This document shows positions 38 to 6,090 of a stretch of 7,082 nt of DNA, one piece after another; position 1 is the first letter of the stretch, and each line of letters opens with the position of its first letter. A program made the translations under genes and the position numbers. The notes beneath the pieces were generated by a model, which worked only from the letters and a program-made list of their open reading frames with translations, had not been told where the DNA came from and searched no databases. The stretch lies in the IMG/VR virus record IMGVR_UViG_2695420821_000006, one strand, 5' to 3'. The stretch is from a virus (lineage: Duplodnaviria; Heunggongvirae; Uroviricota; Caudoviricetes).

Positions 38-1576
38 TTATTCAGTCGGCAGTGCTACGCGCCAGGGGAGCAGTTCGCCGACCCGGTTTATCGGCCAGTC
101 GGCTATGACGTCAAGGACATAGCGGAGGTAGCTTTCTGGCTCCACTCCGTTCAGTTTGCACGTCCCGATCAGGCTGTACAGCAGCGCTCCCCGCTCTCCT
201 CCATGATCCGAACCGAAGAACAGGTAGTTTTTGCGGCCCAGACTGACCATCCGCAACGCATTTTCAGCGATGTTATTGTCCGCCTCAGCCCAGCCATCAT
301 CTGCATAGTACGTCAGCGCCGGCCACTGGTTCAGGGCGTATGCGAACGCTTTCGCCAGTTCTGAGTGTCGCGACAGGGTTTTCATCTTTTCACGCAGCCA
401 GCTTTCCAGGGATTTCAGCAGCGGTTTCGTTTTCAACTGACGTTCGGCAAGGCGCTGCTCCGCCGTCATTCCCCTTATCTCTGCCTCGATGGCGTACAGT
501 TCGCCGATCCGTTTCAGCGCTTCCTCCGTCAGGGCTGACGGGGTGCGAACGTGCACATCGTGGATTTTACGGCGGGCGTGAGCCCAACAGGCGGCTTCCG
601 TTATCCGGCCATCCCGGTACAGCTCGTTGAACCCGGCGTATGCATCCGCCTGCAGTACACCACTGAACCCCGCAAGATGGGTCTGCGGATGGATGCCTTT
701 TCTGTCCGGGCTGTAAGCGAACCACACCGCCGGCGCCAGCGTTGACCCGGCGTTACGGTCGTCACGAACGTAGGTCCATAACCGCCCGGTCTTCGTTTTC
801 TTATTGCCTGGCAACAGCACCGGGACAGGCGTGTCATCAGCATGGAGCTTACCGTCAGTCAGCACATAGTCCTGAAGCGCTTCTTCCAGCGGTGACAGTA
901 GCCGGCAGCATGCATCCACCCAGCCCGACAGCAGTGAACGACTCAGCTCCACGCCCTGGCGGCCGTACATTTCAGACTGGCGGTACAGCGGGGTGTGCTC
1001 TGCATACTTTGAGATCAGCACGCGGGCCAGCAGCCCCGGTCCTGCGATACCCCGCTCGATGGGCCGTGAAGGCGCGGGGGCCTGCACGATGGCATCGCAC
1101 TGAGTACAGGCATGCTTTTCACGTACAGTCCGGATAACCCGGAAGGCGCTGCGCATCAGCTCCAGCTGTTCGGCGGCATCCTCACCCAGATAGCTCAGCG
1201 AGCCTCCACATTCCGGGCAGCATGACGCTGCCGGCAGCAGCCGTTTTTCATCGCGGGGGAGTGATTCGGGGAACGGTTTGCGGGTGCGGGTTTGACGCAG
1301 CGGGCGCTGCACGGCCGGGTCGTCAACCCGACCGGTAAGGGTATCACTTTCTTTCTGAAGTGCCTTCAGGTCAGCTTCCATCTGTGCGATACGACGGGAG
1401 ACTTTTTCCGAGCGGCTGCCGAAGTTCATCCGGCGCAGCTTATCCAGCTGTGCCTGCAGATGGTCTATTTCGCGTTCACGCTCGTTCAGCTTTTCCTGCA
1501 GGGCACGGTTCAGCGCCTCCTGTTCGGCAAGGAGACGTTTCAGTGCATTGATATCGTCAGGAAGTGAGCTGCTCAT
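38..1576 (-). CDS. tnpC: IS66-family transposase (TnpC / Orf3), 512 aa
   Basis: 512-aa ORF with an N-terminal coiled-coil-like region ([19 protein letters not shown]...), a CxxC...CxxC zinc-finger-like pair (CCPECGG...CTQCD) and a long catalytic core; matches my recollection of IS66 TnpC architecture. It is the last of three co-oriented IS ORFs. Confidence 0.88.
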
Positions 1577-3179: not shown

Positions 3180-3695
3180 ATGGCGTTAACACACCGCGAA
3201 CTCTGTCAGATTGCCTACAGGTTCCTTAAGCGCAACGGGTTCAAGGTTTGCTTTCATGACCGCTTTGTTGCTGTAACCAGTACTGGAGAACAACCAGATG
3301 CTATGGGATTCAGAAATTCAGCATCATGCCTGATAGAGGCGAAGTGTTCTCGTGCTGACTTGTTGGCAGATAGAAAAAAGCGTTTCCGTAAAAATCCCTC
3401 TCTTGGCATGGGGGACTGGCGATTCTTTATTAGTGAGCCGGGAATTATTTCAATTGAGGATTTACCACCTGGCTGGGGATTACTTCACGTTGTTAACGGA
3501 AGAGTACGGAAAGTATATGGGTGGCCCAAGGGTAATTGCTGTTGGGGTAATCCTGACGATAAGCCATTTACCGGAAATAAGCAGGTTGAATGCGATTACA
3601 TGTTATCTGCATTAAGGCGCATGGAGTTGAGAGGGCACCTTAATGAAATATATGACGGTGTAATTGTTAATAAGAAAGAAGGAAACGCGGCATGA
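3180..3695 (+). CDS. Putative PD-(D/E)xK-fold nuclease-like protein (possibly MmcB-like), 171 aa
   Basis: Contains QPDAMGF followed about 12 residues later by LIEAKCSRADLLAD, i.e. a D ... E-x-K arrangement resembling the restriction-endonuclease-like catalytic motif. Family assignment is motif-based only. Confidence 0.6.
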   Translation: MALTHRELCQIAYRFLKRNGFKVCFHDRFVAVTSTGEQPDAMGFRNSASCLIEAKCSRADLLADRKKRFRKNPSLGMGDWRFFISEPGIISIEDLPPGWGLLHVVNGRVRKVYGWPKGNCCWGNPDDKPFTGNKQVECDYMLSALRRMELRGHLNEIYDGVIVNKKEGNAA

Positions 3696-4261
3696 TCACT
3701 ATTACCAAAGAGCGACTACTGACAATCAAGCAGTGGCGCGAAACATACGGACCTGGTAGCAACGTTGTGCTTCCAGCAGAAGAAGCGGAAGAGCTGGCAC
3801 GGATTGCACTGGCATCACTGGCAGCAGTATCGGATGAACGAGCAGCCTATGAATTATTTATGGAGAAGCGTTTCGGAGAATCTGTAGATCGCCGCAGAGC
3901 AAAAAATGGCGATAGAGAATACATGGCATGGGATATGGCGCTTGGCTGGATTATCTGGTGTCACCGCGCCGCCATGCTTCAGGCTGGAAACTTTCGGGAA
4001 CATAAGGGTTCGTCAACCAATAATTTTCGGGAAATCTCGGAAACGTCAACCAACCATCCGGTAACTCCGGATGGTTGGATAAGCTGTAGTGAGCGAATGC
4101 CGGATGACGGGCAGTGGTGCGTAGTGAACACAGAATACGGGTATTACGTGCAATGCTGGTCTGAAGGTCAAGGATGGCTTGGTGATGATATCAGCATCCC
4201 TGAATGCGATGTAATCAATCGGATGCTTCTACCTGAACCGCCGCAGAAGGTGCGCCAATGA
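3692..4261 (+). CDS. Phage-type protein with C-terminal DUF551-like domain, 189 aa
   Basis: C-terminus PDGWISCSERMPDDGQWCVVN...YYVQCW fits the W-I-S-x-x-(D/E)-R-(L/M)-P signature I associate with DUF551, which is common in lambdoid nin/early-region proteins. ATGA overlap with the upstream gene. The linker between domains contains a DNA-level repeat. Confidence 0.7.
   Translation: MITITKERLLTIKQWRETYGPGSNVVLPAEEAEELARIALASLAAVSDERAAYELFMEKRFGESVDRRRAKNGDREYMAWDMALGWIIWCHRAAMLQAGNFREHKGSSTNNFREISETSTNHPVTPDGWISCSERMPDDGQWCVVNTEYGYYVQCWSEGQGWLGDDISIPECDVINRMLLPEPPQKVRQ
3989..4053. repeat. Two imperfect ~32-bp direct repeats inside the DUF551 gene linker
   Basis: 3989-4020 AACTTTCGGGAACATAAGGGTTCGTCAACCAA and 4022-4053 AATTTTCGGGAAATCTCGGAAACGTCAACCAA; about 23 of 32 positions identical, with conserved TTCGGGAA and CGTCAACCAA ends. 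Encodes NFREHKGSSTN / NFREISETSTN. Confidence 0.7.
4050..4078. repeat. Perfect 12-bp inverted repeat with 5-bp spacer inside the DUF551 gene
   Basis: CCAACCATCCGG-TAACT-CCGGATGGTTGG; the arms are exact reverse complements. Located directly 3' of the direct repeats. Confidence 0.8.
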
Positions 4262-4556: not shown

Positions 4557-4568
4557 GGGTGCTTGAGG
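4557..4568 (+). promoter_or_regulatory. hok mRNA 5' element (tac-like) complementary to the 3' fbi-like element
   Basis: GGGTGCTTGAGG is complementary, with one bulge, to CCTCAACGCACCC at 4931-4943. It is followed by a 9-bp stem CTGTCTGCC / GGCAGACAG (4570-4578 with 4596-4604). Confidence 0.45.
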
Positions 4569-4609
4569 CTGTCTGCCTCGGGCATGCCGACGTAAGGCAG
4601 ACAGAGAAA

Positions 4610-4676
4610 AGCCCCAGTTAACATTATGCGTCTTGCAGGACGCTTAACATTAATCTGAGGCCATATCTATGACTTG
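4610..4676 (-). ncRNA. sok: Predicted Sok-like antisense RNA (approximate boundaries)
   Basis: A minus-strand promoter (features 4684-4712) would start transcription near 4676, giving an antisense RNA across the mok SD and start codon as in hok/sok systems. The 3' end is not defined; only a weak hairpin (GCGTC…GACGC) and a short T-run are visible. Confidence 0.4.
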
Positions 4677-4881
4677 CACACTTAGATTAGCCTCTTACGC
4701 GCCGAAAGGCAAGGAGCAGCAGGCTATGAAGCAGCAAAAGGCGATGCTAATCGCCCTGATCGTCATCTGTATTACCGTCGTTGTAACGGTACTGGTAACG
4801 AGGAAAGACCTCTGCGAGGTACGAATCCGAACCGGCCAGACGGAGGTCGCTGTCTTCACAGCTTACGAATCTGAGAAGTAA
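4669..4881 (+). CDS. mok: mok-type reading frame (70 codons) that includes the hok frame and shares its stop
   Basis: ATG at 4669 with SD GAGG (4657-4660); in frame with hok. The arrangement is as I recall for chromosomal mokC/hokC. This is the target region for the antisense RNA. Confidence 0.5.
   Translation: MTCTLRLASYAPKGKEQQAMKQQKAMLIALIVICITVVVTVLVTRKDLCEVRIRTGQTEVAVFTAYESEK
4684..4712 (-). promoter_or_regulatory. Putative sok promoter
   Basis: On the minus strand: TTGCCT (complement of 4707-4712), 17-nt spacer, TAATCT (complement of 4684-4689); it lies inside the start of the mok frame, as expected for sok. Confidence 0.4.
4726..4881 (+). CDS. hok: Hok/Gef-family type I toxin (small membrane killer protein), 51 aa
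   Basis: MKQQKAMLIALIVICITVVVTVLVTRKDLCEVRIRTGQTEVAVFTAYESEK aligns by eye with Hok (…[27 protein letters not shown]): one transmembrane helix followed by the conserved TRK-LCE-R…EVA-F-AYES-K tail. RBS AAGGAG at 4711-4716. Confidence 0.88.
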   Translation: MKQQKAMLIALIVICITVVVTVLVTRKDLCEVRIRTGQTEVAVFTAYESEK

Positions 4882-4930
4882 GAGACCCGGCGAGGGAGAA
4901 ATCCCTCGCCACCTCTGATGTGTCAGGCAT

Positions 4931-4943
4931 CCTCAACGCACCC
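4931..4943 (+). promoter_or_regulatory. fbi-like 3' element of hok mRNA
   Basis: CCTCAACGCACCC is complementary to the mRNA 5' end (4557-4568). It lies between a perfect 9-bp hairpin (GGCGAGGGA-GAAA-TCCCTCGCC, 4889-4910) and the terminator. Confidence 0.45.
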
Positions 4944-4951
4944 GCACTTAA

Positions 4952-4976
4952 CCCGCTTCTGCGGGTTTTGTTTTTT
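4952..4976 (+). terminator. Rho-independent terminator of the hok mRNA
   Basis: CCCGC-TTCT-GCGGG stem-loop (4952-4965) followed by TTTTGTTTTTT (4966-4976). Confidence 0.7.
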
Positions 4977-5239: not shown

Positions 5240-5612
5240 GAAACGCGATCTGGCACAGGCGGTGATTAACGCCGCATACCTGGTGGCCTGTGCAGATGGT
5301 GAATGTGAGGCTTCCTAGAAAGCGAAGATCGAACAGGTACTGCGTAATCAGCCTGCGCTGTACGCGTTTACGTCAGAAATTAATGCGATTAGCGCAACCA
5401 TTATCGGTCAGCTGGATACGAACTTTAAAACTGGTCGTCGTGCGGCGTTACGTGAGATCGAGGATGTGAAACACGATACGCGTGAAGCGGAAGATGTGCT
5501 GGATGTGGCGGTGGCCATTGCGGAGGCAGACGGCGAAATTGAGCCGGAAGAGCGCAAGGTGCTGGAAGAGATTGCCGGTGTTCTGGGTCTTCGTCTGGAG
5601 AATTACCTGTGA
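5220..5612 (+). pseudogene. TerB-family (tellurite-resistance TerB-like domain) gene, apparently disrupted
   Basis: The frame reads …AQAVINAAYLVACADGECEAS*KAKIEQVL…VAIAEADGEIEPEERKVLEEIAGVLGLRLENYL*, i.e. two ADG-x5-E-x-(K/R) repeats typical of TerB-like domains. There is an in-frame TAG at 5316-5318 (probably from GAG), a TAA at 5217-5219 just upstream, and no ATG/GTG start before the domain. Confidence 0.55.
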
Positions 5613-5776
5613 CGGTAAAACTGCGCCTGACTGTGGCTGCACTCCTGCTGTTTCTGGTGGTGATGGTGGATTTCACCAGCAGAATCATGTCGGTGCTGGC
5701 GGATGGGGTGCTGGTCTGCGGCATTATGGTATTGCTGTGGCCGGTGATAAAAAGAAACAGCCTGCATAATGCTTGA
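5609..5776 (+). CDS. Putative small membrane protein (about 55 aa, GTG start) coupled to the TerB-like frame
   Basis: GTG at 5609 overlaps the TerB-frame stop (GTGA). Translation (M)TVKLRLTVAALLLFLVVMVDFTSRIMSVLADGVLVCGIMVLLWPVIKRNSLHNA is hydrophobic with two potential helices. Followed by a T-rich stretch (5777-5790). An alternative ATG start is at 5663. Confidence 0.3.
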   Translation: MTVKLRLTVAALLLFLVVMVDFTSRIMSVLADGVLVCGIMVLLWPVIKRNSLHNA

Positions 5777-6090
5777 TTTTTTTGTTTGCTGTTTATTAAA
5801 AACACTTCTGCATGGTGAATCCCCCTGTGCGGTGGGGCAATCAGCAAGAAGGAATATGGGGTAATCGCGGATTCAGGTGCTGATACTGAATTCACCGGGA
5901 GGCACCCGGCACCATGCTTTGCCACAAAAGTGTTATTTCTGTTTTTCTCAAACTATCATCGTTATCCCTTTATTTTCGGCTGCGCATGGCGCGGCCTTTT
6001 TTTTACGACCAGCCACTGGCAGATGGTCATCCTGTGATTTGATTCCGCTTCCGGCTTTTTAACTCTGTTCCTCTACACGGGAGAAATTCG

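Follow-up and report, generated by a model that had tools for sequence, protein, structure and literature searches.

A conserved 44-bp block at the seam of a mosaic prophage DUF551 gene as a probable linker for homologous module exchange

Introduction

The modular theory of lambdoid phages is said to be due to Susskind and Botstein, and boundary sequences were reportedly described for phage HK620 by Clark et al. in 2001. Swapping of C-terminal parts at junction motifs is also a property of polymorphic toxins, where the motif is VENN in CdiA and PxxxxDPxGL in Rhs proteins. The long-running debate on phage mosaicism sets homologous exchange at short linkers against illegitimate recombination followed by selection; in the first of these two standing models, homologous exchange takes place at short flanking sequences that are conserved (PMC3233612, PMC2327257). 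Within single genes, mosaicism has been described for ea22, and DUF551, a small domain of unknown function, has been called a 'portable domain' (PMC10834534). Here we analyze a gene that encodes a 189-residue protein with a C-terminal DUF551 domain and lies in a stretch of DNA of 7,082 nucleotides (nt), the window, taken from the IMG/VR virus record IMGVR_UViG_2695420821_000006 (Caudoviricetes).

The initial annotation of the window drew attention to two imperfect direct repeats and a perfect palindrome of 12 base pairs (bp) in the linker preceding the DUF551 domain, and proposed that they may constitute a site for a dimeric protein, a hotspot of recombination or domain shuffling, or an RNA hairpin acting as an attenuator or processing site. 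The comparative data presented below strongly support the second proposal, with the correction that the feature responsible is not the palindrome itself but a 44-bp block at 4058-4101, which contains the right arm of the palindrome and only the inner 4 nt of its left arm. On the strength of the sequence comparisons, we consider it very probable that the region noted initially forms the seam between modules of a prophage gene and that the block is a conserved linker for homologous module exchange.

A conserved block between unrelated flanks

A blastn search with the gene against 50,697 phage records returned 501 records with a match, and in none of them does the match extend over 80% of the gene. 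In a sample spaced evenly through these records, about half match query positions 360-414 only (window 4051-4105), at 89-100% identity, and the matches sit in genes annotated EaA, Ea22, DUF551, DUF550 or dATP/dGTP pyrophosphohydrolase. The same block-only pattern was obtained with the gene in 2,597 of the 5,426 complete E. coli genomes, and a 61-nt query around the block found 4,765 places in 2,405 of these genomes (44%), with up to eight per genome. The 61-nt query also matched 374 plasmids, which among the matches listed are mostly non-mobilizable and about 90-100 kb long, and which we read as P1-like. In all, thousands of genes in lambdoid and P22-like prophages and in plasmids of Escherichia, Shigella and Salmonella carry the block, and it is also present in Stx-converting phages.

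Loci in IMG/VR were gathered by an exact 20-mer from the block and aligned without gaps; the locus counts and class numbers obtained from them are to be read as 'at least', among the matches listed. In 101 distinct loci, column identity is at least 0.89 at 4057-4101, falls to 0.62-0.85 at 4047-4056 and is 0.3-0.6 beyond. Nucleotide diversity (pi) tells the same story: it is 0.036 in the block over all classes, while the flanks reach 0.66-0.69 overall and only 0.002-0.09 within classes, a range that includes the value for the block. The block is, therefore, a short segment that is near-identical among genomes with unrelated flanks. The N-terminal parts joined to it are 12-319 residues long and include dATP/dGTP pyrophosphohydrolase, Ead_Ea22 domains and many sequences with no Pfam match; the DUF551 parts comprise 57-77 residues, or 15 in truncated alleles. 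Without exception, the match to the DUF551 profile begins with the Trp that the block encodes.

Some longer proteins contain, at an internal position, only the left half of this segment (N/S-S-P-V-[TI]-P…), joined to modules other than DUF551 (GNSPVIPDGLSTVCAE…, TSSPVTPALLPGG… and NSPVIPDGLRLALS…). Judging from these sequences, the linker part of the block seems to be a junction for other modules too.

Reassortment of modules across the block

Flank classes were defined from the 60 nt upstream and the 60 nt downstream by thresholds of ungapped identity, and a four-gamete square was scored when two upstream classes and two downstream classes were present in every one of their four possible pairings. 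A first partition, into 24 upstream and 18 downstream classes, yielded 67 combinations and 50 squares across the block. In a second partition there were 111 squares across the 5' block and 36 between the core of the DUF551 domain and the downstream gene, but not a single one when the 5' half of the core was compared with its 3' half; the zero exchange inside the cassette provides an internal negative control. Since squares occur at both blocks and are absent from the core, the core must move as a unit between two junctions.

The position of the crossovers is indicated by linkage. Polymorphic sites up to 4057 are tied to the upstream class (z = 8-24; z = 8-17 at 4047-4057) and not to the downstream class, those from 4102 on are tied to the downstream class (z = 11-30) and not to the upstream one, and sites 4062-4096 are weakly tied to either. 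The linkage thus switches within the block, which places the crossovers inside it. The minimal efficient pairing segment has been quoted as 23-27 bp for Red-beta and 31-34 bp for RecA (PMC3945230), and the block, with its 44 bp, is longer than both. Reassortment of the flanks, a switch of linkage within the segment and a length sufficient for pairing are, therefore, all found in the block.

In mechanistic terms, the block would act as a homology tract for crossovers made by phage annealases of the Red-beta, Erf or RecT type or by host RecA. Exchange at the 5' block would join any N-terminal module to any DUF551 core, and a second conserved block, with which the gene ends, would do likewise between the core and the next gene, so that the core would move as a cassette. 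The 3' block of the window is degenerate, encoding NRMLLPEPPQKV versus the usual THWMPLPEPPQEV and carrying AAGG versus GGAGG as the ribosome-binding site, which fits the low DUF551 score of the window gene (28.9 bits versus 47-80 bits in its relatives).

In the IMG/VR loci L029, L073, L099 and L101, the 5' block is joined almost directly to the 3' block (…SERMPDDRQEVNQ*), i.e., the whole core is deleted. The sequence ATGCCG, present in both blocks, is a possible microhomology for this deletion.

The coordinates of the features discussed here and below are collected in Table 1.

Table 1. Features of the DUF551 gene, its junctions and the neighboring insertion element (window coordinates)
Feature	Position or locus	Strand	Basis
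5' junction block CCGGTAACTCCGGATGGTTGGATAAGCTGTAGTGAGCGAATGCC, encoding PVTPDGWISCSERMP (end of linker and start of DUF551)	4058..4101	+	column identity, diversity, reassortment, linkage
Shoulder of partial conservation, column identity 0.62-0.94; most upstream modules end in GGC AAC TCT (G-N-S), that of the window in ACC AAC CAT (T-N-H)	4047..4057	+	
Core of DUF551, a variable cassette with at least 18-23 sequence classes, of which the window has one	4102..4210	+	no reassortment of 5' and 3' halves
3' junction block, consensus (GTAACC)CACTGGATGCCGCTACCAGAACCGCCGCAGGAGGTGAA (about 40 nt), encoding HWMPLPEPPQEV and carrying the ribosome-binding site of the next gene	4211..4253	+	
Left arm of inverted repeat: 4050-4057 in upstream (linker) module, 4058-4061 in conserved block	4050..4061	+	linkage, sequence
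Right arm of inverted repeat, codons P-D-G-W, wholly within conserved block	4067..4078	+	
Repeat unit 1, NFREHKGSSTN, 33 nt, in frame	3989..4021	+	linker tandem duplication
Repeat unit 2, NFREISETSTN, 33 nt, in frame; its 3' end TCAACCAAC gives the outer part of the left palindrome arm	4022..4054	+	sequence reading
Mosaic prophage gene, 189 residues: N-terminal module, repeat-containing linker and C-terminal DUF551	3692..4261	+	list of open reading frames, Pfam
Internal left half of block with non-DUF551 modules	L025, L088, L046/L099, L167 (Enterobacter phage BUCT554)		
Open reading frames of IS66-family element	HTH_Tnp_1 1969-2373; TnpB_IS66 1625-1972; DDE_Tnp_IS66 transposase 38-1576	-	

Why the block is conserved

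A second search, with a pattern that allows any codons for P-D-G-W-I-S-x-x-E-R-M-P, returned essentially one DNA sequence: apart from a single diverged copy, the matches listed had no more than four synonymous differences. In the six codons of PVTPDG, which are free of constraint by any of the search patterns, there are 6 synonymous versus 14 non-synonymous types of variants, and the resulting 30% is the neutral expectation. Distant DUF551 genes do without the DNA of the block: in Enterobacter phage BUCT554, IPDGWVACSERMP is encoded by different codons, and in Edwardsiella phage GF-2 the core class of the window stands behind a different junction, QPEWIERAEHTP. Because of the neutral synonymous ratio and the existence of such genes, protein constraint is not the cause of the conservation, which, as judged from the variants, is that of a freely exchanging segment shared by descent. 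A scan of genome contigs for the peptide WISCSERM gave four confirmed loci only, too few to assess codon variation across species.

It could also be argued that the modules were brought together by illegitimate, i.e., non-homologous, recombination followed by selection for domain boundaries, and that the block merely reflects protein-level conservation of the first DUF551 strand. Module boundaries that coincide with domain boundaries are expected under this model as well (discussed in PMC3233612), and WISxxxxMP belongs to the start of the Pfam DUF551 profile. However, PVTPDG, which makes up half of the block, is not part of the Pfam domain, and illegitimate joins would recreate neither the same 44 nt of DNA with neutral-looking variation nor a gradual switch of linkage within it, nor would they give 50-111 independent four-gamete configurations at one place and none in the core. 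The illegitimate origin of the joins is, therefore, improbable.

Several points weigh against the view that the block is a linker for homologous exchange. The crossover role is deduced from population patterns. The flank classes depend on the ungapped identity thresholds by which they were defined. The loci were collected by a match to the block itself, whether the 20-mer or the degenerate pattern, which lowers the diversity in the anchored part, and sampling anchored in this way reveals junctions only where the block is present. Direct selection on DNA or RNA could likewise account for the near-identity of ancient classes within the block, and a residual hairpin of -8 to -18 kcal/mol is present in most variants, for which a weak structural role is possible.

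The palindrome and the linker repeats

Both structures noted initially are real. The repeat finder reports the inverted repeat CCAACCATCCGG / CCGGATGGTTGG, complementary at 12 of 12 positions around a 5-nt loop and read in frame as (T)N-H-P-V-T-P-D-G-W. It is the sole perfect 12-bp inverted repeat with a loop of 3-10 nt in the window, and none of 100 dinucleotide-preserving shuffles contained one, which agrees with the initial assessment that it is unlikely to arise by chance. An inverted repeat with 11 of 12 pairs and a 9-nt loop begins at 5652, and a second perfect TCCGG-N5-CCGGA dyad, which is the inner part of the palindrome, is located at 1129-1143, inside the IS66 transposase gene.

Among 157 sampled copies, the window alone has the 12/12 pairing. 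The exact 29-mer is present in five IMG/VR contigs (four with the allele of the window and one with a different mosaic), and the exact 61-mer of the window is absent from the 5,426 complete E. coli genomes searched. The commonest form, GCAACTCTCCGG-TAACT-CCGGATGGTTGG (G-N-S-P-V-T-P-D-G-W), has nine Watson-Crick pairs out of 12, and other upstream classes have 4-7. According to the shuffles, inverted repeats of the 9/12 type are expected about 23 times per 7-kb window, i.e., the pairing of the consensus is at chance level. The palindrome is not conserved at the DNA level in more distant homologues either: it is missing from DUF551 genes of Enterobacter and Edwardsiella phages that nonetheless retain the domain or, beyond it, the motif in the protein, an outcome that the initial annotation had named as a refutation.

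How the perfect stem arose can be traced from its parts. The block itself contributes a weak intrinsic dyad, CCGG-TAACT-CCGG, made by two Pro codons (CCG), plus GTTG opposite CAAC. Positions 4050-4057 derive from the end of repeat unit 2 (ACC AAC) plus a His codon, CAT. The presence of CAT (His) instead of the usual TCT (Ser) before the block, combined with a repeat unit that ends in ACC, completes the 12-bp stem by chance. The comparison of the copies shows that the perfect palindrome is a by-product, an allele-specific coincidence on a weak dyad, and its lack of conservation suggests that the hairpin has no conserved function of its own.

The direct repeat (3989-4020 and 4022-4053 in the output of the repeat finder) is 72% identical with a spacing of 33 nt; it was not reported by Tandem Repeats Finder at a score of 30 and was confirmed by other means. 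The period of 33 nt equals 11 codons and the copy number is polymorphic, as is characteristic of an in-frame coding tandem repeat. The repeat is a real tandem duplication because relatives carry one, two or three units, the latter at one locus, and alleles with the same N-terminal module have either one unit (P0002, 178 residues, AAMLQAG-NFREISETSTNYPV) or two. The repeats are thus shown to be an in-frame tandem duplication of an S/T/N-rich linker unit whose copy number drifts between one and three, and not binding units; in other alleles the repeat linker is replaced by alternative ones, e.g., EPVSQTYKLNELSGNSPV. The drifting copy number and the neutral 30% of synonymous PVTPDG variants bear out the initial description of this part of the protein as a low-constraint linker.

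A further recurrent junction motif, (R/E)AAMLQ[AS]G, is found at 3964-3988, where the blast segments of relatives start or stop (query 273-292). AAMLQ[AS]G joins the NFRE repeat linker to at least five different upstream modules.

The proposal that the hairpin acts in messenger RNA (mRNA), where it would attenuate transcription within the gene, be processed by an RNase or make translation pause and so tune the expression of the DUF551 domain or of the downstream small peptides, draws on its stability: the 29-mer stem of the window allele has -22.3 kcal/mol, the 131-nt region around it has z = -3.5 relative to shuffles, and most variants retain some stem, in the range of -8 to -18 kcal/mol. An attenuator or terminator should be followed by a U-run, yet the stem is followed by AUAAGCUGUAG, and the promoter and terminator scan detected no terminator-like site there; the only promoter-like match near the stem is a weak one on the minus strand, at 4049-4020, which is at chance level. 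There is no Rfam match at the site (E<=1), the matches elsewhere in the window being sok, STnc100 and weak ones. In an alignment of 74 distinct variants, stem covariation is 0.052 versus 0.052 in shuffled controls, and 74.3% of the positions are paired versus 74.5%. The perfect stem is restricted to the five IMG/VR contigs, the change GGT>GGC breaks a stem pair in at least seven distinct variants with one compensated case only, and homologues exist that have the motif and lack the stem. The function of the hairpin as an RNA attenuator or processing site is thus highly unlikely.

Still less can be said for a binding site of a dimeric protein, be it an operator or a partition- or iteron-like site, in which the direct repeats would be extra binding units. 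Most copies of the block contain the inner dyad TCCGG-N5-CCGGA, and three matches to it in the window compare with 0.23 expected. However, the other two matches fall within the IS66 element, and the conservation of the inner dyad is that of the block as a whole, by shared descent, and does not exceed that of the neighboring block positions. Without exception, the dyad occupies an in-frame position where a protein domain starts, in Ea22/EaA and DUF551 genes and on plasmids, and not near promoters, and its symmetry is not kept among homologous loci, the 12/12 form being the rare allele found in 1 of 157 copies. The repeats do not resemble iterons or a partition site either: there are two units, 72% identical, coding and in frame, and their number varies from one to three among alleles. 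In the closest annotated prophage, an Stx2d prophage of E. coli STEC434, neither an origin nor a par locus is annotated beside the gene, which does not lie in a partition or operator region. We consider a binding-site function extremely unlikely.

It is possible, albeit on balance doubtful, that the changes that perfect the stem resulted from intrastrand template switching at the quasipalindromic block, a process that is documented for quasipalindromes in E. coli (PMC7202029) and that would complement the linker explanation. The perfecting changes are TCT>TAT>CAT in the left arm, in the window, and GGT>AGT and GAT>GAG in the right arm, elsewhere. At the two internal mismatched pairs, four of four perfecting substitutions have been seen versus two of eight non-perfecting ones (hypergeometric p of about 0.03, with counts that are not phylogenetically independent), and in lineage L118 (GNSPVTPESW) two adjacent right-arm changes bring the complementarity to the left arm to 11/12. 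On the other hand, the single-step intermediates TAT and AGT exist, so that stepwise point mutation suffices; the variants are spread between classes by recombination; the C at 4050 comes from the repeat unit and not from mutation; and the shuffle control revealed no association between the arms.

A bolder version of the linker explanation, which we think rather unlikely, is that the core is a long-lived polymorphism of at least 18-23 classes, in which two dedicated crossover blocks re-pair an effector-like domain with new N-terminal partners, and that the quasipalindrome at the left edge aids exchange (e.g., through replication stalling or template switching) while being itself reshaped by templated mutation.

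The gene and its surroundings

DUF551 (PF04448) is the sole Pfam match of the 189-residue protein, at residues 128-185, where the 28.9 bits exceed the gathering cut-off of 22 bits, and its very beginning is encoded by the right arm of the palindrome. The Ead_Ea22 domain was not found in the protein by the Pfam search. An identical protein (P0001) is encoded on 171 contigs. Among the complete E. coli genomes, none has a 2.9-kb match to the window with identity above 94% across 85% of the length. The AlphaFold2 model of the protein, based on 24 homologues, is poor (mean predicted local distance difference test score, pLDDT, of 42) and was not used.

In the STEC434 prophage, the gene has DUF7167 as its upstream and hok as its downstream neighbor, in the interval that separates the replication genes from RusA. 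This neighborhood speaks against a location in the ea (exo-xis) region. The ea22/eaA genes nevertheless also carry the conserved block.

A complete IS66-family element occupies 38-2373 of the window on the minus strand, directly upstream of the DUF7167 gene; in the STEC434 prophage this slot holds DUF4406 and a DNA-binding protein. Downstream of the gene lies a hok/sok type I toxin-antitoxin locus (4557-4881), with an Rfam sok match of 114.8 bits at 4557-4731 and a Hok/Gef open reading frame at 4669-4881 (Pfam, 81 bits). The small RNA STnc100 has a strong Rfam match at 5781-5953 on the plus strand (100.8 bits versus a gathering score of 47), and an isrK-like match at 4890-4971 on the same strand is below threshold (29.3 bits versus 50). 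An open reading frame of 48 codons at 5466-5612 (+) matches only the C-terminal part of TerB (Pfam, 32.7 bits, profile positions 70-109 of 118) and is probably a gene fragment.

Comparison with known systems

For the debate on mosaicism, the locus offers an unusually clean and abundant natural example of the linker model, intragenic and at a domain boundary. Given the presence of the block in 44% of complete E. coli genomes, often at several places per genome, and in Stx-converting phages, early-gene modules are likely to pass from one prophage to another by this route. For annotation, the locus teaches caution: a palindrome that stands out statistically may be an accident of one rare allele.

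The quasipalindrome hotspots of E. coli (PMC7202029) resemble the window in having an imperfect inverted repeat whose variants tend towards perfection, although here the statistics are suggestive only. The resemblance to the junctions of polymorphic toxins is one of analogy: in both cases a short conserved coding motif delimits a C-terminal module that varies strongly and is swapped by recombination at the conserved DNA. In contrast to the toxins, which are unrelated to one another, the DUF551 cores represent a single small domain of unknown function in divergent forms. Nor is the core accompanied by a cognate immunity gene; the gene downstream of it reassorts freely.

The ea22 genes (PMC10834534) belong to the same gene pool, since the block is present in genes annotated Ea22, EaA and ead/Ea22-like. 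Mosaic variants were noted in that work, including C-terminal parts that share only a 16-residue segment, which may correspond to the block; the mosaicism was described at the protein level, without a DNA crossover block. The window gene differs from ea22 in its location, between the replication genes and RusA, and in the absence of the Ead_Ea22 domain. No description of the block as a crossover site was found in the searchable literature.

The closest likeness is to the linker or boundary sequences of lambdoid phages, with which the block shares a short stretch of conserved DNA, unrelated flanks, reassortment, a length sufficient for Red or RecA, and a position at a functional boundary. It differs from them in that the 5' block is intragenic, at a domain boundary, and translated (PVTPDGWISCSERMP), whereas the lambdoid linkers lie between genes, and in that two blocks bracket the core of a single protein domain as a cassette. 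With these distinctions, the locus adds a new and very clear example to a kind of element that is already known.

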